DNA of 63,935 nucleotides, counting the filler, from Collodictyon triciliatum (Eukaryota): the NCBI GenBank assembly GCA_043381765.1. It is 5 parts of 5 records of this genome, joined end to end, with 100 filler letters (N's around TTAATTAATTAA, not from the genome) between each part and the next. Parts side by side here need not be neighbours in the genome. Positions count along the whole stretch, not along the records: positions 57,605 to 63,935 come from JBHJMP010001851.1; 4 more parts are not named here. The stretch is one strand, 5' to 3'. Positions within the stretch are counted from its first letter, which is position 1; the number at the start of each line of letters is the position of its first letter. The notes beneath the pieces are model-generated. The model was given only the letters and a program-made list of their open reading frames with translations. It was not told the origin of the DNA and searched no databases. Both the position numbers and the translations under genes were made by a program. Positions 14,358-63,935 of this stretch are shown one piece after another.

Positions 14358-14457
14358 NNNNNNNNNNNNNNNNNNNNNNNNNNNNNNNNNNNNNNNNNNN
14401 NTTAATTAATTAANNNNNNNNNNNNNNNNNNNNNNNNNNNNNNNNNNNNNNNNNNNN
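14358..14457. other. Artificial contig linker N44-TTAATTAATTAA-N44
   Basis: Exactly 100 bp, with a core that gives stop codons in all six frames; identical at four positions. Confidence 0.97.
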
Positions 14458-16581: not shown

Positions 16582-16820
16582 CTTTTTTTTATCCTTTTAT
16601 CTTTTTTATCTTTTTTTATCTTTTTTTATCTTTTTTTATCTTTTTTATCTTTTTTATCTTTTTTATCTTTTTTATCTTTTTTATNNNNNNNNNNNNNNNN
16701 NNNCTTTTTTTTATCTTTTTTTATCTTTTTTTATCTTTTTTTTCTTTTTTTTCTTTTTTATCTTTTTTTATCTTTTTTTATCTTTTTTTATCATTTTTTA
16801 TCTTTTTATATCTTTTTTTA
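16582..16820. repeat. (TTTTTTATC)n repeat spanning an assembly gap
   Basis: Read directly; N run at 16685-16703. Confidence 0.9.
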
Positions 16821-28822: not shown

Positions 28823-28922
28823 NNNNNNNNNNNNNNNNNNNNNNNNNNNNNNNNNNNNNNNNNNNNTTAATTAATTAANNNNNNNNNNNNNNNNNNNNNN
28901 NNNNNNNNNNNNNNNNNNNNNN
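28823..28922. other. Artificial contig linker
   Basis: N44-TTAATTAATTAA-N44. Confidence 0.97.
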
Positions 28923-33800: not shown

Positions 33801-34058
33801 TTATAAAATTCACTTATATTTATCAGAAACATAATTCTTTTTTGTTTTTTATTCTTTTATTTTGTTCAAGATGGTGGTTTTGGTTTTTTATGACACAATC
33901 CATAATCTATTTGTAAACAAGCCTAAACTTTGTCGAAAAGGGGCTCATTCTCTTGGATATATTTCATCACATTTTTTTGTTGCAAAAATACACTAGCACC
34001 TTATATTTGACCTTTACTTGTGTAAAATGGTGTAATGTTTTGGCTTTGGTTCGTTTGT

Positions 34059-34975
34059 CATCGTTTGCATGGACGCTACTTGTTGGCCGGGTGGCGGAGA
34101 AGTAGTCGGTTATCAGGAGTTGCATCCTGCGGTTTGGCCTGTAGCCTGGGTCTTGTGCTTGCATGAGAGATACAAGGCGAGGTTTAATCTCCTTCTCAGC
34201 TTCTTTCCACATGTCTCTTCTCACGGGGTCGGAGTAGTAGAGAACGTGCAGGTGGCGAAGAAAGCTATTGAGGAAAGAGATTTGTATGATGTCATTCAGC
34301 CTGTTATCAGGAATGGGTGGCTGGTTGTTGAATCTTGCTTTGCGTGAGTATATGCGCGCTATCCACATAGTCCATAGCAAATGGCCTCGCGTCACTGCCC
34401 AGAATGTTTTTGCATCTGGACGCAGCTGTTGCAGAGGCCCAAATATCGCCTGGATTGAGCCAACAGCCGCAGCCGTCTTGAGTGTCAGTCGAAGAATCTC
34501 ACCGGCTGCTTTGCGCAGGTTTTGAGCGAAGGGACATTGCACAAATGCGTGCTCAATGGATTCATCCCTGTTGCTGCAAAGTGTGCATTGTCGGGAGACT
34601 TTGCCAGCTTTTGCCGCGCGTGTGCCTATCCATAGCTCCCTCTTGGTGATATTATGCATTAGAGAGCGGTGATTTGGAAGGACTTGCGGGATTCGTGCTT
34701 GTCTCCAGCTCGCGATGAGCGGGGTGTGGGTGATGCCCAGGGTTTCTCCCCACCGTTGATGTTTTGACTTTTTGTAGGGTGTTGGCGGTGGTATTTTGCA
34801 TCGAAAGAATTTGGACTAGGCCATAGCCATCGAGAACTGCATAGACTGCGCACCGTTAGACGAGCGTTCGTTCTTAAGGCGGAAAATAATGGCGACGGGA
34901 TGCCGTATGAGGTTGGTCTGCGTGAGCGCCATTTTCCTTTGTTATTCAGGACGGCTGTGGTTAGTTGAGCCCCTT
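34059..34975 (-). mobile_element. Non-LTR retrotransposon (L1/Tx1-like) ORF2 3' fragment with zf-RVT zinc knuckle
   Basis: CTLCSNRDESIEHAFVQCPFA (C-x2-C...E..EH...C) followed by LWTMWIAR (W..W..R). GC-richer than the flanks, and frameshifted near 34660-34760. Confidence 0.85.
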
Positions 34976-43069: not shown

Positions 43070-43169
43070 NNNNNNNNNNNNNNNNNNNNNNNNNNNNNNN
43101 NNNNNNNNNNNNNTTAATTAATTAANNNNNNNNNNNNNNNNNNNNNNNNNNNNNNNNNNNNNNNNNNNN
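43070..43169. other. Artificial contig linker
   Basis: N44-TTAATTAATTAA-N44. Confidence 0.97.
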
Positions 43170-45389: not shown

Positions 45390-47534
45390 TCAGAACTTCC
45401 AGAACAAGCATAAGGAATAGAGCGCGCTGATGAGAGGAAACAGAACGTCTAACATATTTCTCGATGTGCTGTACTGACCGAAGGCCTGATGGTCGATTTT
45501 CAGAGTGTGTATCTCAAACGTCATGGAAACAAGATTCGAGAGGGATGTGGCAATAAATTGTATTGCGATACTAAAGACCAAGAAATATGGGTCGTTGTGA
45601 GTTGGTAGATTGACTTCTCCACGAATTGGGTGAATCAGATATATAATTACGGGGCATAGGAAGGACATCCGTAAGTCAGCAAACATTTCATACGAGAGTG
45701 AAATGGCACGAAGCTTCCTGAGATATTCTAGCTTTTTCTTTTTTCCTTCCTTGTAGCGAATCTGCGCATCTAGGGGTATATCCGCTGGAATGGAAATATT
45801 GCTTCTCTCTGATGTTCTTCTCCGCTGGGGATGGAGGCCAATACTACTAGAGCTTAATCTATGATTAAAATGCTGTAGCTGTCTTTGTGAGCCAGTCTCA
45901 CTCCCTGGTCTTGCCGAGTCTGAATTTCGTCTCCAGAAAAAGAGGCATTTTTGCAGTAGATAAGCGACTCGGTTCTCTTCATCCTCGACTGCAGGCACTT
46001 CAAAACTTTCAGCCACTTCTTCACCCAGTACATCGATAGCGAAGTGCGACCCATGCCTTGATGGTGCCTCGGCGTCGCTTGTAAAAAACCCAACTTCGAT
46101 AGTAGTACCCGATGTACTTGATGTCAAAACTCCATTGCTTTCGTCATAAGAATAGTTGACTCGTAGATTTAGCAATTTGGTCCACAAGAAAACGCGAATA
46201 GAGCTCAAAATGCGAATGTATCGCCTACGGAATTGATGTGTAGCTTTGATGTATTTGATGAAAAGGACGCGAGAGACGAAATCAATCACGGATGATAAAA
46301 CTGTTGATATTGCCATTTCTTCATACGAACCAGAGGTCGCAGAGAGTAATCGAGACAAACATATGACCACGCACATAAATGCAGAGCTTTGAAGATAACG
46401 GTCCTCCATGCTCTCAATTGACATGCCTTCGAAAAATAAATCACTCAATCCGATAATTCCATACAAGACAGGAAGCAAAACGAAGCACCTCAGAATCACC
46501 CGATATAGCGCAGTGGGGGTATAGATTGTAATCCAAAGTATTGACGTAAAAACAAGGGACCCAGTAAGATATATGTACATCCCATAAAAAAGGACCTGAG
46601 GTGTTCCGTCCTTCGTGAGAGCGAATTGCCTTTTGTATGTTTCTTCTTTTATTTTATCTTGTTCTTCGGAGTCAGTGCAAGTAAGTTCAGGTGGTTTTCT
46701 CTCATCTTGGACTGTTTCCAAGCCCGTAGATGTGATATTGGTTGAGGCCTCATTTGATGATGTAGGTACGCTATCTTCGTTTTTCTTCAATGAGATATCT
46801 TTCCCCTGCTGGAATAGATAGTTGCTTTGGTCTTCGCTCCTTACCAGAGCACGGCTTGCGTAAAATTGGTGGGAAAGTACAAAGAAAAATGAAGAAACGC
46901 CTAATCGAAAAATATTGAAAATCCCGCAGAATCCTAGAAACAAGAGCTGCAGAGCCATGCACGGGACAGATATTTGGTACAAAATTGGCTTTACTATGTG
47001 CCTTCCAAATACAACCGTCAATCCCATTATTAGAATGGTGTAATTCCCAAAGCTGGTGACCAGTAGCATCGCCATTCGGTATGTGAATTGAAGTCTTTGA
47101 AATCTGTTTCCAAGAGGGTCTGATTTTTTGTCTACGACTGGCTCATAGAATATATACCAAGGACGAGAAGAAACTGAGTCGATATGGCAAAAGGTCATGT
47201 TGACCAGGGCATCGCTTGTGCGTCTTGCTATTACGAGGTGTCCTTGTTCGCTGTGCCGCAGATTGTAAACGTCTTCATATTTTTGCTTATGATGGGAGTA
47301 TGCAGTTTGCACGTTGGTGTCGGTGTTGTTTTGTACATCCTTGCAAATTGTGTAGAACTCTTCGTAAAGTGTGTTGTAGTCGTAGATGTAAGTCGGGGCA
47401 AAGTAAAGAACAAGCGCAGATACGCATAACATATTGACCCAGAACGCGCGGGCCGCTATGGAGCGGTAGATTACCGTGGCCTTTGCTAATGAGTCGCGGT
47501 AGCTGGGTGTGTCGTCCTCCTGCCTATGCATCAC
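45390..47534 (-). CDS. Intronless 714-aa multi-pass membrane protein, function unknown
   Basis: Single uninterrupted ORF with many hydrophobic segments separated by S/T/E-rich loops; no motif recognised. Confidence 0.8.
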   Translation of the reverse strand: MMHRQEDDTPSYRDSLAKATVIYRSIAARAFWVNMLCVSALVLYFAPTYIYDYNTLYEEFYTICKDVQNNTDTNVQTAYSHHKQKYEDVYNLRHSEQGHLVIARRTSDALVNMTFCHIDSVSSRPWYIFYEPVVDKKSDPLGNRFQRLQFTYRMAMLLVTSFGNYTILIMGLTVVFGRHIVKPILYQISVPCMALQLLFLGFCGIFNIFRLGVSSFFFVLSHQFYASRALVRSEDQSNYLFQQGKDISLKKNEDSVPTSSNEASTNITSTGLETVQDERKPPELTCTDSEEQDKIKEETYKRQFALTKDGTPQVLFYGMYIYLTGSLVFTSILWITIYTPTALYRVILRCFVLLPVLYGIIGLSDLFFEGMSIESMEDRYLQSSAFMCVVICLSRLLSATSGSYEEMAISTVLSSVIDFVSRVLFIKYIKATHQFRRRYIRILSSIRVFLWTKLLNLRVNYSYDESNGVLTSSTSGTTIEVGFFTSDAEAPSRHGSHFAIDVLGEEVAESFEVPAVEDEENRVAYLLQKCLFFWRRNSDSARPGSETGSQRQLQHFNHRLSSSSIGLHPQRRRTSERSNISIPADIPLDAQIRYKEGKKKKLEYLRKLRAISLSYEMFADLRMSFLCPVIIYLIHPIRGEVNLPTHNDPYFLVFSIAIQFIATSLSNLVSMTFEIHTLKIDHQAFGQYSTSRNMLDVLFPLISALYSLCLFWKF

Positions 47535-47756
47535 TCCTCACCCTGGGTCAGGATCGATCTGCCTGGTGAACAATTGTCGTTAGACTCTTGACAGTTCGCG
47601 CTTCGCTGAATGCTTTTCTCTGTTCGGTCGTTCGCAGGCGTTTGGTTGTCGGCGTTGAGTTAAAATATCGCTTTGCTGTCACATAAACGCCGTTGCGAAA
47701 ACGTTTCATTTATCTATTTGTGGATTTTACTGTATTTCCATGTGATGGCCGCATTG

Positions 47757-48565
47757 NNNNNNNNNNNNNNNNNNNNNNNNNNNNNNNNNNNNNNNNNNNN
47801 NNNNNNNNNNNNNNNNNNNNNNNNNNNNNNNNNNNNNNNNNNNNNNNNNNNNNNNNNNNNNNNNNNNNNNNNNNNNNNNNNNNNNNNNNNNNNNNNNNNN
47901 NNNNNNNNNNNNNNNNNNNNNNNNNNNNNNNNNNNNNNNNNNNNNNNNNNNNNNNNNNNNNNNNNNNNNNNNNNNNNNNNNNNNNNNNNNNNNNNNNNNN
48001 NNNNNNNNNNNNNNNNNNNNNNNNNNNNNNNNNNNNNNNNNNNNNNNNNNNNNNNNNNNNNNNNNNNNNNNNNNNNNNNNNNNNNNNNNNNNNNNNNNNN
48101 NNNNNNNNNNNNNNNNNNNNNNNNNNNNNNNNNNNNNNNNNNNNNNNNNNNNNNNNNNNNNNNNNNNNNNNNNNNNNNNNNNNNNNNNNNNNNNNNNNNN
48201 NNNNNNNNNNNNNNNNNNNNNNNNNNNNNNNNNNNNNNNNNNNNNNNNNNNNNNNNNNNNNNNNNNNNNNNNNNNNNNNNNNNNNNNNNNNNNNNNNNNN
48301 NNNNNNNNNNNNNNNNNNNNNNNNNNNNNNNNNNNNNNNNNNNNNNNNNNNNNNNNNNNNNNNNNNNNNNNNNNNNNNNNNNNNNNNNNNNNNNNNNNNN
48401 NNNNNNNNNNNNNNNNNNNNNNNNNNNNNNNNNNNNNNNNNNNNNNNNNNNNNNNNNNNNNNNNNNNNNNNNNNNNNNNNNNNNNNNNNNNNNNNNNNNN
48501 NNNNNNNNNNNNNNNNNNNNNNNNNNNNNNNNNNNNNNNNNNNNNNNNNNNNNNNNNNNNNNNNN
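47757..48565. other. Scaffold gap (N run)
   Basis: About 810 N. Confidence 0.98.
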
Positions 48566-49903
<1,338 letters not shown>

Positions 49904-50365
49904 ACGCTGACTCTGTCGTGGAGCTAAAGTGATGCACAATCCCAAAGTTATCTCCAAACATCTCGTTTGTGTCCTTCACTCTGTGTGCGAGGTTCTTTTT
50001 ATTTCGCCTGTAGTTGTGTGTGACAAAGAAAAGGGGAATGAATAGTGCAAAAGAACAGAACAGATTATTTTCCAATCAAAAGTAAACGGAAGTGACAATG
50101 AAAGCCAAAGAGGAGAGAAGAAAAGAGTCCAGTCAACAAGAAAAAGTTGTAGGGTTGTCGGCCGGGGATTGTTTTTGTTTTTGTTTTCTTCCTCTTCTCA
50201 TTCTCTGTTGTACCCACCCACGGTTAGGGGTTTGAAAACTGAAAACAACAAAGCCTGTAGAGAAAGGGGTAGGAAGAGCAACCTCCACACAGCGATGTAG
50301 AATGCGTGGGGCTTTTTCTCCTGTGCCTGCCCTCGCGTGTCTGTTGTTCGGGTGACCGCCGCCCC

Positions 50366-57408: not shown

Positions 57409-57438
<30 letters not shown>

Positions 57439-57504
57439 CATTATCATTATCATTATCATTATCATTATCATTATCATTATCATTATCATTATCATTATCA
57501 TTAT
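57409..57504. repeat. (TATCAT)n hexamer at contig end
   Basis: Read directly. Confidence 0.95.
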
Positions 57505-57604
57505 NNNNNNNNNNNNNNNNNNNNNNNNNNNNNNNNNNNNNNNNNNNNTTAATTAATTAANNNNNNNNNNNNNNNNNNNNNNNNNNNNNNNNNNNNNNNN
57601 NNNN
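57505..57604. other. Artificial contig linker
   Basis: N44-TTAATTAATTAA-N44. Confidence 0.97.
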
Positions 57605-57670
57605 CCATATATTGAATTAGATATAATAATAAGTAAAAAAACGCAGAAAACAATTGAGGATGAAATAATC

Positions 57671-57712
57671 TGATATTTATTTATTCTATATATCTAGAAT
57701 AAATAAATATCA
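57671..57712. repeat. Perfect 18-bp inverted repeat with 6-nt loop
   Basis: TGATATTTATTTATTCTA-TATATC-TAGAATAAATAAATATCA. Confidence 0.9.
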
Positions 57713-57716
57713 AAAA

Positions 57717-59552
57717 CCAGAGTATCGAAATGTGAAAACATCTCTAAAGTCGATTGTAAAGAATGCGGATGACTATGAAAAAAAAATAATCAACGATACA
57801 GTTTTATTGTGTCATAATTTGGCTACCGAAATTTATCTGTTTGCAAGATGTTACATATTGAAATCATAACAACTCCCAACAATCGATGAAAAGTTTTTTT
57901 TTGTACGCTTTAAAGACAGTCGGAAAAATTTCACAAGATAGACCCGTAATATATATATATATATATGAGAGAAAACATGATGACTTTTATCTCAATGATT
58001 TTCGATTCGTTTTGTCCCGAGAAGAGCGCTTTCCGTAGGTTGGACTGTCTCATGTATTACCGTACTTGGCGAGGCAAATGCTAACAGCTCATCATAATAA
58101 CATTAAGGAACATTTTGCAAAGAGGTTACTGCGCTTTATAAATCAAATAGTTCCTAAAGATGAGAATATGACGGAAGCTATTAAAAAGGCAGAGTTACGA
58201 AAGTTAAAAAAAAGCCATCTTCAAGAAACTCGAAATACCGGAACAATATAAAGGATGGGCTATAATGCATTTGAATCGTATCATTCCCAGCGATATTGTA
58301 AATGGTATCGCATATCACGTCAAAGTAAATCCAAATAAGTACCTTTCCATGTCTGATTTACATAAATCGCATTTTTGAGGACATCGGAACCAAACTGTTT
58401 CAACCAATCTCTAGAAGAACTACCAATATACCGTGTCATAATACCTTAAATAAAGCATGTTTGATAGATATATTGGTATTATCTGGAAAAACATTATTAA
58501 TGAAGAATATATCAGGATGCAATGAGACCCTATGGGATGAGTTCTTTGAAATGAAGAAGAGGGTCTTACATCAAAGAGACTAAAATTTTAAATACATGAT
58601 ACAAACACACGAGTTGGCGGTGTCATTATTGTTTGAATAGAAAGTTATTTCAAATTCAAGATTCAGATATAATCAAACAACCGAAGAATGTGTTTATGTA
58701 GATGAACTTTCCGAAGAGCAGTTATCTTTATTAGCGACAAATAAAAAAAAATAGTCGGAGTGGACGCAGGTAAGTTTAATTTTGTTTACATGGTGGATGA
58801 GACAGATAAGAAATTACGTTACATGGCACACCAAAGGTGTGATAGCAAATCTCTTAAAAATCACAAAATACTTTTGTGCGAGAAAAAAAAGTGAAATGCT
58901 TCAGGGATATGCATGGCAACAGGTTTACAAAGTGCTATTTCTTTTGGTCTCAGGACTTTTTAAGAGTATCAGCAGTTTGAGACATTAAGAGTATATTTAA
59001 TCGATTTAGAGACAGAACTGAGTAAACATAATTCATGAACGTTGATTATGAATAATTTCGAAAATATGTATCTATAAAACCATGATTCCAGACAGAATTA
59101 TCCAGATTTTATGAAAAAGTAACTTTTCGAAAGATGAGATGGAGACAGTAATTTAATACAAAAAGAGGTGAACAATTGCTTGTGAACCGAATCGAAAAGA
59201 CATTTGGCAAGGATGTTGTACTGGCGTATGGAGACTGGAGTAGAAAATCTTTGATGAAACATTTCATGCCAACAATCGGAAGAGAATTATGAAAAATACC
59301 ATCCAAACGTTTTGAAACAGTGAGTGTGGATGAATTTAGAACCTCCGATATGTGTTGTAACCGCGAAAAAGAACTGGAATATGTGAAACCGAAAGGAAAC
59401 TCAAAAAAAAAGTGTATAGATGCCTCATATGTAAAGAACGCAATCGCTCAGAAAGCAAACAAAGTGTATTCTTGACAAAGGACTTTAACAGCGCCATTGA
59501 TATGCTCGAGAGTTCTTTTAACCCTTTAAAATATGCATTCACCTTCCTTTAA
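57717..59552 (+). pseudogene. Fanzor1 (eukaryotic TnpB-like RuvC nuclease), disrupted
   Basis: Joined frames: YRNVKTSLKSIVK, LPTIDEKFF, PYLARQMLTAHHNNIKEHFAKRLLRFIN, YMIQTHELAVSLLF, RuvC-I IVGVDAGK (D at 58763), LAYGDWS..MKHFMPTIG, RuvC-II VSVDEFRTSDMCCN (E at 59332), YRCLICKE, RuvC-III TKDFNSAIDML (D at 59481). Several in-frame stops and frameshifts. Confidence 0.88.
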
Positions 59553-59559
59553 AAAAAAT

Positions 59560-59626
59560 AGGCTGTTGGGTCTTTCCTGGCAGCCTTCACTGCTACACAA
59601 TCTTTGTGAAAAAAGTGGTGAGACCT
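59560..59626 (+). ncRNA. Putative Fanzor omegaRNA scaffold
   Basis: Two adjacent stems with G-U pairs starting 8 nt after the Fanzor stop: AGGCUGUUGGG/CCUGGCAGCCU (59560-59586) and UCACUGCU/AGUGGUGA with inner CACA/UGUG (59587-59621). Confidence 0.5.
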
Positions 59627-60387
59627 TGGATACTAGCGGACGAAGTTTACCAATCGAAGGATTGTTATAGTCATAGTTATACAAGCAAGCTGTCATTATA
59701 AAGTAATAATTTATGAGTCATAGCATCAAGATTTATTTAACCGTTCCCTTCTTTTCCCACTTTTATTTTTTTTTTTATTTTTTTTTTTTTTAATGGAAAC
59801 GAAAGCGAGATGTCTTCTGTGTTCTCCACTACCAGAGAGGCCAGTGAGCGAAAATCGGCTGGTGGGAGCTCCTGCAACCAGCGCGTGCCCTCCGAATTTC
59901 CGTATTGTGTTTCCAGAAAAGGATACATTTCCAGATCTGCTGACCCTCGAAGTTGTGTTTCGAAATTGACGGAGCCTGCTATCGACACCACGAATCCTCT
60001 CGCGCTCTCCCCGCTTCTGTCCTGTAACCTTGCGCCCGGTGGATTCTTGTGGAATCAAGCGTAAGTGTGGCCCAGTCTGCAACCCTACTTGAATGGCTAG
60101 TAGATTCACTTAACTCCTGAAGAAATGAAATACTGCCGCTAGCCCGTTCCCCTGCTCTTTTCATTTCATTGGGGATTTGTCTGGCTGCAAGCGTCGCGAA
60201 GAACGCACCTTTGATCACACACAAACTTACGCTCCGCATCCTCCCAATCCTATTTTTCCCTTGGAGATAACCAGTCGGAGCCCTGCCAAAGGCCATATGA
60301 TCCTACCTGCCAACCCACCTTGATCGCGTGTCGCACTCCTCACCCATATGTTTGGTTTGTAGCCTTCAAAAAAACTCTGAAACAAGC

Positions 60388-61402
60388 ATGATCGTCCCAA
60401 AGAAGGATCGCCTCGCTGTCTACAGATACCTCCTCCAAGGTCAGTGCACACAATTTTTGCCCACACCACTAGGAGGCAAGCTTGCTATCCAATCAACCAG
60501 AGCCCTTGAAGGACTCTTTCTTCCCTCTTATCTAACTGCGCAGTAGCAAAAGTCTCAGTCCCTCCCCTTAATTTTTTTTTTTTTTTTGCTGGGTTTAGTT
60601 CAAAGAGTGCCTGGCTCCTCCTCCTCCCTTTTTTTTTTTTTTTGTTTCTGCTCCTTCCTTTTCCTCTCCCTCTTTCGACTCTGTGGTCATATCGTGTCTC
60701 TGACAAAAGGGAGCACACTTTTCTGAGCCACAAGCTGTCAGGAAGCATACACACACACGCACACAAAAAAAAAATGGAAAAAAAAAAAAGAAACCCCCTA
60801 TACTCACGCACGCAACACCTCTGGTGACTCTGCCGCGCAGAGGGAGTGCTCGTTGCCCCCAAGGACTTCAACAAGCCCAAGCACGACATCCTCGATGTCC
60901 CCAACCTCTACGTGCTAAAGCTCCTGCAGTCCCTCAACTCGCGCGGCTACGTCAAGACGCAGTTCAGCTGGCAATGGTACTACTACTTCCTGACAGACGA
61001 GGGCCTCGTCTACCTGCGCCAGTTCCTGCGCACGCCCGAGGACGTCATCCCCAACACCCACAAGAAGACCGAGCGCGCCGTCCCCTCGCACATCCGCGAG
61101 TCCCGCGACAGTACGTATTCACTCCGTCCCTTTGCGAATTCACACATTCTCCCACTCTACCTATCTGTGTCTGTCGTTCTGTCTATCTCACTGATTCGCC
61201 CGCAGGATATCCCCGCCGCCAGGACGGTGAAGGCAAGAACATCGCCCCGGGCTCCGACTTCAACCCTGAGTTCCGCGGCGCCGGCCGTGGCACCGGCCCC
61301 CGCACCTTCAACCGCAGCGGCGCCGGCGAGTCCAGCGGCGCTGAGCCGCGCCAACCCCGCCCCTTCGGCCGCGGCCGCACAGACGCCCCCGCCTCCGCGT
61401 AA
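60388..61402 (+). CDS. RPS10: 40S ribosomal protein S10 (eS10)
   Basis: MIVPKKDRLAVYRYLLQ|EGVLVAPKD...VPNLYVLKLLQSLNSRGYVKTQFSWQWYYYFLTDEGLVYLR...PGSDFNPEFRGAGRG; three exons; AATAAA after the stop. Confidence 0.97.
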
Positions 61403-61499: not shown

Positions 61500-63935
61500 T
61501 CACTTGGGGAGCAGGGCCAGCAGCAGGTCGCCGGCCTTGACCTCGTCGCCCGGGGCAACCGCCAGACCCTGGACGCGGCCGGCCGCCGGGGCCTTGACGA
61601 CAGTCTCCATCTTCATGGCGGACAGGACGAGCAGCGGCTGGTTGGCGGCAACAGCCTCGTTCTCGCGCACGCGCACAGCCACGACGGCGCCGCCCATCGG
61701 CGCTGCAACAGCCGCACCGTGCACGGGCCGCCCCGCCTCGGGCTTCTGGCGGACGCCGGCTGTCGGCGCCACGGCCCGGTCGCGCACAGTCACGGCCCGC
61801 GGCTGCCCGTTGACGCGCATGTGGACGGTGACCATGCCGTCGGCGCTCGGGCGGGGCGTGAGTGCGAGCAGCTGCACAGCCAGCGTCTTGCCGCGCTCCA
61901 GCTCGATGTGCGCCTCCTCGCCCAGGCGCAGCGGGCCCAGGAACAGCGGCGTCGGCAGCACCGTGACCGGCCCAAACAGCCCCCGCTTCTGCTGCAGCTC
62001 TGCAAAGACCTGCGGGTACTGCGCCGCACTTGGGGCCGCCCCGTGGAGAATGGTGTGTGGTGAGTTGCGTGTGTGCTTCTTGACTCGGCTGCACCGCACT
62101 CGCTCTTACCTCAGCAGGTCGCCCTCGGAAAGCGGCGCCCCGTACTTGGCCGTGCTGCTTTCTTGGAGCTGCTCAAAGTCGAATGGCGGCATGCTTGCTC
62201 CTGGTCGGCCTGGGATGGGGGTTATGTGGCATGGTATTGTTGCTGTTGCTGTTGCTGTTGCCGTTGTCACTGGGATGAAAGAGACGGAATGGATAAGGAA
62301 GAATTGCTAGCTTTTACCCTCCGTGACTCGCGATGATGACTTGACGACGCGGCTGCGGAATGGCTCGGGAAATCCCCCGTGTGGCTCGCCAAGGTTGCCC
62401 TCAAGGAAGTCGACCACGCTGGCAGGGAGTGACAGGGATTCGGCCTGGGCCACGAGGTCTTGCTCGCTTAGCTGTCAGTCGAGAGGGTGGTTGGTTAGTT
62501 GGGCCACACACGCGACGTGTTTGGTGGCAAGAGAGAGAGAGAGAAAGAGAAATAAAGACAGAAGAAAAAAAAAGGATGGAAAGAACCACCTTGTTCTGAA
62601 CCATGAACTGGGCAAGGTCTCCGACAACCTTGGATGAGGGAGTGACCTGTGTGGTGGCGGAGTGTGATGTGGTATTACGTAATATCGCGACAGAGTCCGG
62701 AGTCTGACGAGGCTGGGCAAACCTTGACAATGTCGCCCAGGACGCGGTTCGCAGCCGCATAGGCCTTCTTGATGGCGGGCCATTCCGCTGCGAGGCCCAG
62801 TGACTGTGCCTGGAACTGCAGGTTCGTGTACTAGTGTTTGTGGTGGGCGTGTTCGTCAGTGGGGTGGCTTTGTGGCTTTGTGGCTTTGTGGTTCACCTGT
62901 CCTCCTGGCATCTCGTGGTCGTATACCTCGGCACTCCCGCTGTCAAGATTATGTTATTCATGATGTCGGATTAGTTATTTGGGCTATTTTATTTATTTGT
63001 GCGAGTCTTGCTATAAATCGATTGTGTTGTTATTTAGCCAAAAAGAAGAAAAAGACCTTTTGATTGTCGATTCAAAAGGGGCGTAATGCGTTCGCACAAC
63101 TTCCCAATAGTCATTCAGCTCCTAAAGAATATGCACAAATTACAAAGACACTCACGCCTATGGGAGAGAGCAGGATGGGGCGCATCCATACACGGGGGAG
63201 GAAAAAGGACATCGATTGCCGAGAAAACGAAATAATGTGACATGGCATAGCAGAGTATGCATGTATTTGACGCGAATAAATTGGCACAGTGAATCCAGAG
63301 AGATTGATGCCACAGTTGAGCTCCTTCTGGTGGATGATGGCCCCCATGGATGGCTACCATCAATTTTTTTTTGTGTTATTTTTTTCAGTGACAATTCGTT
63401 GTGTAAATAGAGCTATAGGTGGACTTTAGATACAAATACTCGATTATGTTTTTTTTAAAAAAAATAAATAAATAAAATAGATATATCAATAAGCGAAAGG
63501 AAAAAATCACAGATGGAAGAAAAAGAAATTGCATCATAAAAATATGTATCACCTGTGATGTCAAACCACTCATCGAATCGATAGCAACATCAACAATATC
63601 AGCACCGGCCTTGGGTCAGTGAGAAAAAAATATTTCAAGATCCCCAAATAGTACAGGGTACGTAAATTAACAACAATTAATAAGCCGCTCAAAATTTTAT
63701 GGTTTATCTTTGGACATAGGACGCAAGCATTGTTTACATCGATTAGATTTAATCAAATAAAATGGGTGGTATACATCAGCACATTACTACCTTATATGCA
63801 GCAATCATAGAGGCAACTCCCGTTCCAGCGGTGTCGTGGGTATGTACATGAATAGGGGTGTTGGGGAATTCTATACACAAGGGGGGGGGGGGGGGGAAAA
63901 AAAAAATTTTTTAATTTTCTCAAAAAAAAGAAAAA
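61500..63935 (-). CDS. PC: Pyruvate carboxylase, 3' part (5'-partial)
   Basis: [94 protein letters not shown], and biotinyl domain SAMKMET. Confidence 0.96.

Follow-up and report, generated by a model that had tools for sequence, protein, structure and literature searches.

Among the RNA-guided DNA endonucleases of the TnpB type, which are carried by transposons, the Fanzor1 proteins are the branch found in eukaryotes and giant viruses, and both Fanzor1 relics and multi-copy Fanzor transposons have already been well described. The prokaryotic TnpB proteins have a canonical RuvC-II glutamate, are compact (about 400 amino acids, aa) and lie in the context of prokaryotic insertion sequences (IS). 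The DNA analyzed here, hereafter the window, is a stretch of 63,935 nucleotides (nt) from Collodictyon triciliatum (assembly GCA_043381765.1), in which an original prediction made from the sequence alone had placed a decayed Fanzor1 gene at 57717-59552. According to our analysis, this locus is almost certainly a Fanzor1 gene copy that lost its 5' end and died long ago. Among the characterized proteins of the family, SpuFz1 holds its magnesium through the ligands E541, D383, N385 and D606, as reported by Saito et al. (2023, PMC10432273), and the signature that Jiang et al. (PMC10530073) give for Fanzors is the change of the canonical RuvC-II Glu to Pro or Gly together with an alternative Glu about 45 residues downstream. 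The relic that is compared with these proteins below has the following extent.

57714-59597, plus strand: Fanzor1 pseudogene, collinear with residues ~14-642 of the intact protein P0158, with 13 in-frame stops, 6 frameshifts and no start codon

The reference, P0158, is intact, has 648 aa and is encoded on a metagenome contig of 2.6 kb; the C-terminal piece of the relic matched it with an E-value of 7.8e-40, and it was aligned with the window DNA by a frameshift-aware dynamic programme. Residues 11-642 of P0158 aligned with positions 57702-59597 of the plus strand, with identity at 367 of 621 codons (59%) and a score of 1677, compared to 75 when the query was reversed and 63, 71 and 64 in three shuffled versions of it, so that the observation is real and lies far beyond chance. 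The relic is also collinear, in seven segments, with residues 14-585 of a further relative, P0005. The motifs listed in the original prediction were all present in a three-frame reading of 57.6-59.76 kb, with VKTSLKSI beginning at 57732 and HHNNIKEHFAKRLLRFIN at about 58095-58145. The predicted location held on the plus strand with a small shift of its limits, the homology beginning at 57714 and the coding part of the relic ending at 59597, beyond 59552. The ancestral stop probably lay near 59620, and the repeat itself extends to about 59662-59693. Self-comparison found no further copies inside the window.

For the family assignment, pieces of the relic were translated through their lesions, with X at stops, and compared with the proteins of the Protein Data Bank (PDB). 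The C-terminal piece matched PpFz1 (E 1.4e-9) and SpuFz1 (E 1.8e-4), and the N-terminal piece matched GtFz1 (E 5.2e-5) and PpFz1 (E 0.011); the middle piece and a 49-aa piece around RuvC-I had no Fanzor match in the same search. The Fanzor1 identity first proposed is borne out by these two separate pieces, which match solved Fanzor1 proteins, and by the collinearity of the whole locus with intact Fanzor1-type proteins. Among 1.84 billion representative proteins, the C-terminal piece found 1154 at E<=1e-3 and 201 at E<=1e-10, and many of the relatives from this search measure 610-690 aa. P0005 (634 aa) aligns to SpuFz1 over residues 14-607 (E 9.2e-37), and P0158 matches GtFz1, PpFz1 and SpuFz1 by sequence with E-values of 2.1e-28, 2.7e-24 and 3.7e-23, respectively.

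Folds were compared on P0158, the closest intact relative, in place of the relic. The P0158 model that AlphaFold gave from an alignment of 48 rows had a mean predicted local distance difference test (pLDDT) of 83.6 and a predicted template modeling score (pTM) of 0.82. Its top seven fold matches in the PDB were all Fanzor1 proteins (E 2.7e-26 to 2.2e-23, template modeling score (TM) 0.60-0.78), and the first match outside Fanzor1 was a Cas12 (E 1.8e-6). In the same ranking Fanzor2 came 22nd and TnpB 24th and 35th, with TM of about 0.2-0.3 for Fanzor2, TnpB and Cas12. P0158 is therefore a Fanzor1 protein both by its sequence and by its modeled fold, which is that of Fanzor1 (WED/REC/RuvC/NUC architecture). 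Two other assignments were considered and rejected. A prokaryotic TnpB of the IS200/IS605 or IS607 type does not agree with the Gly at the canonical Glu position, relatives of about 640 aa, a eukaryotic nuclear contig and the low TM to TnpB; for Fanzor2, no Fanzor2 chain appeared among the sequence matches, and ApmFz2 (9B0L) was the protein ranked 22nd by fold, with TM of 0.22 and 0.29. One of the relatives, P0006 (378 aa, metagenome), is a Fanzor1 fragment bearing the source name "6-pyruvoyl-tetrahydropterin synthase", which looks like a misannotation.

Compared with the described proteins, P0158 is similar in fold to SpuFz1 of Spizellomyces punctatus (PDB 8GKH, 9CEU-9CEZ; PMC10432273; TM 0.71-0.78, E about 3e-26), with which it also has in common the active-site columns D383/E541/D606, the Gly at the canonical Glu position and a size of about 640 aa. 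However, the two are only about 20% identical, about 33 additional residues form a loop in the P0158 subfamily, and the window copy is a pseudogene. GtFz1 (Guillardia theta, 9CER) and PpFz1 (Parasitella parasitica, 9CF0) gave the best PDB sequence matches both for pieces of the relic and for P0158, whereas their identity in the fold alignment was 18-20%, and PpFz1 is larger. The closest intact relatives of the relic are P0158 and its twin P0160, both 648-aa proteins encoded on 2.6-kb metagenome contigs, which are 59% identical to it over 621 codons and have the same insertion, but are intact, keep all catalytic and zinc residues and are uncharacterized.

The residues on which catalysis and zinc binding would depend were located as follows.

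58763-58765, plus strand: catalytic Asp of RuvC-I, kept; gac in VGVDAGK, equivalent to SpuFz1 D383

58892-59035, plus strand: insertion specific to the subfamily, about 33 residues long and absent from P0005, P0021, P0024 and P0030, with two stops in the window

59230-59232, plus strand: Gly at the canonical RuvC-II Glu position of TnpB; gga in AYGDWS, the normal Fanzor state

59332-59334, plus strand: shifted catalytic Glu, kept; gaa in VDEFRTS, equivalent to SpuFz1 E541

59362-59364, plus strand: first lost zinc ligand, now Arg; cgc, CCNR versus CCNC in P0158

59439-59441, plus strand: second lost zinc ligand, now Arg; cgc, CLICKER versus CLICKEC in P0158

59481-59483, plus strand: catalytic Asp of RuvC-III, kept; gac in TKDFNSA, equivalent to SpuFz1 D606

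SpuFz1 numbers were assigned through the P0005 alignment, with an offset of 394 for the chain fused to maltose-binding protein. P0005 residues D372, G496, E530 and D581 fall on SpuFz1 D383, G505, E541 and D606, the four P0005 residues are invariant among 20 relatives, and the Asp, Gly, Glu and Asp of the window occupy these same columns. All three acidic residues said at the outset to survive are thus kept, and the proposed reading of GDWS as the RuvC-II site, with a shifted Glu in DEFRTS, matches the published Fanzor signature; the Gly-to-Glu spacing in the relic is 34 residues. The conserved Arg before the RuvC-III Asp is now Lys (aag, 59478-59480). The two Cys-to-Arg changes first noticed in CCNR and CKER were found as described. 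The first occupies the site of the second Cys of the first CxxC pair in the relatives, in the column of P0005 C540, which is nearly invariant among 20 relatives, and the second occupies the site of their last Cys, in the column of P0005 C567, invariant in an eight-row alignment (A2). P0158 has the whole of the Bao-Jurka motif, D-X(125,275)-[TS][TS]-X-X-[C4 zinc finger]-X(5,50)-RD, but the motif is broken in the window copy, where two of the four Cys are Arg and RD is KD, so that this copy belongs to Fanzor1 by descent only, as a pseudogene. The insertion at 58892-59035 is common to P0158 and P0004, and in the P0158 model it corresponds to a low-confidence loop (residues 415-437, pLDDT <50) that is apparently disordered.

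The decay of the copy is extensive. In-frame stops are found as TAA at 57867, 58581, 58742, 58961, 59053, 59149 and 59550, as TAG at 58036, 58638 and 59559, and as TGA at 58892, 59083 and 59290, the thirteen of them replacing C, L, Y, Q, K, R or F of P0158. Six frameshifts lie at or near 57891, 58207, 58346, 58740, 59036 and 59404, the first ~13 codons are lost with the ATG start, and no open reading frame (ORF) able to give the protein remains. The window copy is dead and cannot make the protein; the original prediction had gone as far as "probably dead", and the thirteen stops of all three kinds, the six frameshifts and the missing start codon agree with it.

These lesions also bear on a different explanation, namely that the gene is alive and that its breaks are homopolymer errors of assembly or sequencing, unrecognized introns or the effect of a deviant genetic code. 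In its favor, four of the six frameshifts lie in or beside runs of A8, A9 or T9, and some eukaryotic Fanzor genes have introns, according to Jiang et al. (PMC10530073). However, the frameshifts at 58346 and 59036 are away from homopolymers, and because the stops are of three kinds and fall at seven different P0158 residues, no single recoding fits. Homology continues unbroken through each lesion, so the breaks are not introns; a candidate GT..CAG intron with a pyrimidine tract at 58892-58953 was ruled out, since the apparent insert of 58892-59035 to which this stretch belongs is coding in P0158 and P0004. The start codon is absent and two zinc Cys are replaced. Finally, exact-match contigs from other sequencing runs share two of the stops and one A9 frameshift. 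We consider this explanation largely refuted and give it next to no chance.

The contigs just mentioned come from four freshwater or drinking-water runs, X1 to X4 (Logan contigs), which were compared with the locus; among the 17 sequencing runs listed, none contains >0.12 of the sampled words of the window. Contigs with no difference from the window cover 59121-59362 in X3 and 59212-59362 and 59341-59491 in X1, and jointly carry the same stops at 59149 and 59290 and the same A9 frameshift at 59404. They lend partial support to the lesions being real, a support that loses its independence if one of the samples is the source of the assembly. Beyond these, short contigs, mostly of 125-355 nt, matched the locus at 80-100% likeness (29, 141, 2 and 30 from the four runs). 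In several of them a stop of the window is replaced by a sense codon, with the depth of differing contigs given for each run.

Position 58583, A>C, giving TAC (Tyr): X1 14.4/14.4, X2 29/29, X4 2.62/2.62; window letter in none

Position 59083, T>A, giving AGA (Arg): X1 16.8/16.8, X2 43.1/43.1; window letter in none

Position 59151, A>T, giving TAT (Tyr): X1 7.2/7.2, X2 64.1/64.1; window letter in X3

Position 59290, T>C, giving CGA (Arg): X2 64.1/64.1, X4 3.02/3.02, X1 4.3/7.3; window letter in X3

In the differing contigs listed, the sense codons at these four stops encode the residues of P0158. At the 59036 frameshift, two contigs of X1 and two of X2 have one G more than the window, inserted after 59040. 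We read this as the signature of a putative dispersed, multi-copy repeat family, other members of which appear less decayed than the window copy. The earlier suggestion of a wider family with intact members held in part, in that metagenomes contain two intact relatives, P0158 and P0160, as well as many near-copies.

The same contigs delimit the element, whose two ends are as follows.

57671-57712, no strand: AT-rich palindrome of 42 nt with 21-nt arms, 95% complementary, adjoining the end of homology to other copies

59598-59693, plus strand: repeat tail, made up of the final few codons of the ancestral gene and a short stretch of non-coding 3' sequence

Upstream of 57713, three contigs of X1 and three of X4 continue in one common consensus that is absent from the window. 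Since the palindrome replaces this shared consensus, the copy is 5'-truncated, and the palindrome is either unrelated flank or another repeat truncating the 5' end of the element. The flank at 57606-57712 itself occurs in metagenome contigs, which diverge at 57713, and it may be another repeat. At the other side, contig cover reaches the 59622-59693 bin, with loose ends at 59662 and no contig over 59694-59760, and the right transposon end and the 3' part of the omega-RNA would be expected within 59598-59693. A hint of a retrocopy, given by a poly(A)-ended loose consensus at 59662 from two contigs of X2 (agreement 0.8), was set aside as too thin for use.

Several observations weigh against the interpretation of the locus as a dead Fanzor1 copy from a dispersed transposon family. 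Pfam detected nothing relevant on nine raw pieces, on three read-through pieces or on P0158, and PF07282 reached its cutoff in only two of six relatives; Pfam is thus nearly blind to the P0158 subfamily, which explains why the gene was hidden. The four homopolymer frameshifts could in principle be sequencing errors, the one at 59404 being the only one matched by an exact contig. The state of other copies, among the contig rows listed, covers four of the thirteen stops, and the metagenome contigs could derive from several species and not be paralogs of one genome. The window was found to contain neither a pair of terminal inverted repeats nor a target-site duplication nor any remnant of a transposase, so that the transposon context is inferred from relatives. 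The fold of the RNA from 59440-59740 was no better than that of shuffled sequences (z -0.94), and Rfam gave no family on the 3' region, with a single sub-threshold snoRNA match.

The last two results are equally relevant to the idea that the protein is dead and the locus has been kept as an omega-RNA-like transcript or as a regulatory element upstream of the gene for ribosomal protein eS10. The eS10 start codon does lie about 0.7 kb downstream of the end of the relic, whose 3' tail is still common to other copies. However, such a function is not reflected in any structural signal or Rfam match, and the lesions are evenly spread along the element, as neutral decay predicts. We regard the retention of a function here as very improbable, and the locus as a decayed Fanzor1 copy.

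To place this Fanzor1 copy among its relatives, metagenome and viral contigs were scanned with the eight-row alignment A2, which is centered on P0005. Of 598 pattern matches in metagenome contigs, 493 encode a relative (80 kept), and of 394 in IMG/VR, 325 encode a P0005 relative (80 kept), many of the IMG/VR matches being on long contigs whose record names mark giant-virus assemblies. Two of the viral loci, L002 and L024, have an intronless Fanzor gene beside a divergently oriented transposase with DDE_3 and HTH domains, the gene pair being enclosed by terminal inverted repeats of 32 nt (100%) or 34 nt (97%). They amount to complete elements of 3.3 kb (L002, 2637-5952) and 3.9 kb (L024, 2006-5902) with an intact Fanzor1 in giant-virus contigs, and a gap of 16 nt separates the Fanzor stop codon of L002 from the right repeat. 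Neighboring genes include the ribonucleotide reductase small chain, an XPG nuclease and a glycosyltransferase. These elements are the mariner-type Fanzor1 described in 2013 by Bao and Jurka (PMC3627910), whose mariner/Tc1-type elements include PGv-1 and PUl-1. They resemble the relic in that its nearest labeled relatives, L002/L081 and L024/L099, are of this type and lie in giant-virus contigs, but the window has no transposase relic or inverted-repeat pair (the DDE_3 transposases of L002 and L024 found no relic in the window, best E 2.1), and identity between the relic and the nearest viral protein is only 39%. Judged by sequence, the subfamily of the relic appears closest, among labeled relatives, to the Fanzor1 of Tc1/mariner-type (DDE_3) giant-virus transposons.

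A FastTree phylogeny was built from 93 rows, namely the relic, with its breaks written as X, 65 proteins of 510-800 aa from the databases, and 27 viral loci, taken as every third of 80. The remaining 53 viral loci, the whole set of 80 metagenome loci and matches outside this length range were left out. In this unrooted tree, whose supports are optimistic and whose viral rows were drawn with the P0005-centered query, the relic, P0158 and P0160 group together with a support of 100. The trio is sister (95) to a group with the viral loci L081 and L084, and both groups lie within a 40-row clade (95) that contains all 27 viral rows. This topology, the large share of the IMG/VR matches that encode a P0005 relative, and the intermingling of viral and cellular Fanzors known from Bao and Jurka (PMC3627910) would suit an origin of the relic from integrated giant-virus DNA, or from direct virus-to-host transfer, and not from a transposon family multiplied in the host. 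However, the viral rows cluster near P0005 by design, because the query alignment was centered on it; with P0158 as the query against viral contigs, none of 36 pattern matches was confirmed, and the viral protein nearest to P0158 has only 44% identity with it. Furthermore, the contig of the relic has ordinary nuclear genes and no viral gene, and the many short contigs at 80-95% likeness resemble a dispersed repeat. We therefore hold a direct viral origin to be improbable, and favor a copy of a family that multiplied in its host.

The mechanism by which a living copy would have worked is carried over from experiments on SpuFz1, GtFz1 and others, the contribution of this locus being the ancestry of the protein and its death. 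Such a copy would encode a nuclear protein of about 648 aa; P0158 has a basic MKKRKR stretch at its N-terminus, and nuclear localization signals are reported in about 60% of Fanzors (Jiang et al., PMC10530073). This nuclease would associate with an omega-RNA that is transcribed from the 3' end of the same element and whose guide would be the flank just past the transposon end; for Fanzor1 RNAs, Yoon et al. (PMC10711439) describe an extension of about 15 nt past the target-site duplication. The complex would then cut DNA that matches the guide beside a short target-adjacent motif, as in Saito et al. (PMC10432273), with a RuvC site made of the RuvC-I Asp, the shifted Glu and the RuvC-III Asp. 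The window copy may once have belonged to a multi-copy repeat family of a probably freshwater eukaryote, and then decayed in AT-rich DNA.

The relic is a real but ordinary genomic fossil, which adds one more eukaryotic lineage to the Fanzor1 hosts and leaves the picture of how Fanzors work unchanged. For annotation, it turns an "empty" AT-rich stretch of 2 kb upstream of eS10 into a transposon fossil that was missed by ORF tracks and by Pfam. Modest interest attaches to the uncharacterized intact sister subfamily P0158/P0160, with its extra loop and its place near giant-virus Fanzor1s, which fits the existing view of viruses spreading such elements. A more ambitious reading, which we offer tentatively and judge possible but on the whole unlikely, is that the P0158-type proteins (648 aa, with the extra disordered loop after RuvC-I) are an uncharacterized Fanzor1 subfamily that is still an active multi-copy transposon in a freshwater eukaryote and has been exchanged with giant viruses. 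If this is true, its intact members would be compact, naturally nuclear RNA-guided nucleases worth testing.

The window DNA is eukaryotic nuclear, and the position of the relic within it is given by the following features.

57505-57604, no strand: artificial contig joiner, N44-TTAATTAATTAA-N44

60388-61100, plus strand: eS10 gene, with an intron of ~400 nt after codon 17

61500-62105, minus strand: C-terminus of pyruvate carboxylase, very GC-rich (0.70)

Identical joiners (44 N, TTAATTAATTAA, 44 N) occur at 14358-14457, 28823-28922, 43070-43169 and 57505-57604, and plain N runs at 16685-16703 and 47757-48565. As the window is a chain of separate contigs, adjacency across the joiner points is unproven. 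The relic-bearing contig comprises 57605-63935, its start being set by the joiner that ends at 57604, and it also encodes eS10 (S10_plectin, E 3e-32) and the C-terminal biotinyl domain of pyruvate carboxylase. Exon 1 of eS10 closes at a GT donor and exon 2 opens after a CAG acceptor, as in a GT..AG intron. The GC content is 0.34 over 57702-59662 compared to 0.49-0.70 in the gene-bearing kilobases downstream, and exons and intergenic DNA of this genome differ by about 30 points in GC.

Elsewhere in the window, an (ATTATC)n microsatellite at 57410-57504 closes the preceding contig. A 282-aa open frame at 33967-34815 (minus strand) has a zf-RVT domain (E 1.9e-8) and is probably the tail of a non-LTR (long terminal repeat) retrotransposon reverse transcriptase. 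An uninterrupted frame of 715 aa at 45390-47537 (minus strand) belongs to no Pfam family and gave weak leads to membrane proteins of the TMEM39 (0.77) and TMEM117 (0.75) types. Lastly, a tetranucleotide array, (CAGA/TCTG)n, at 49422-49975 produces artificial open frames on both strands.

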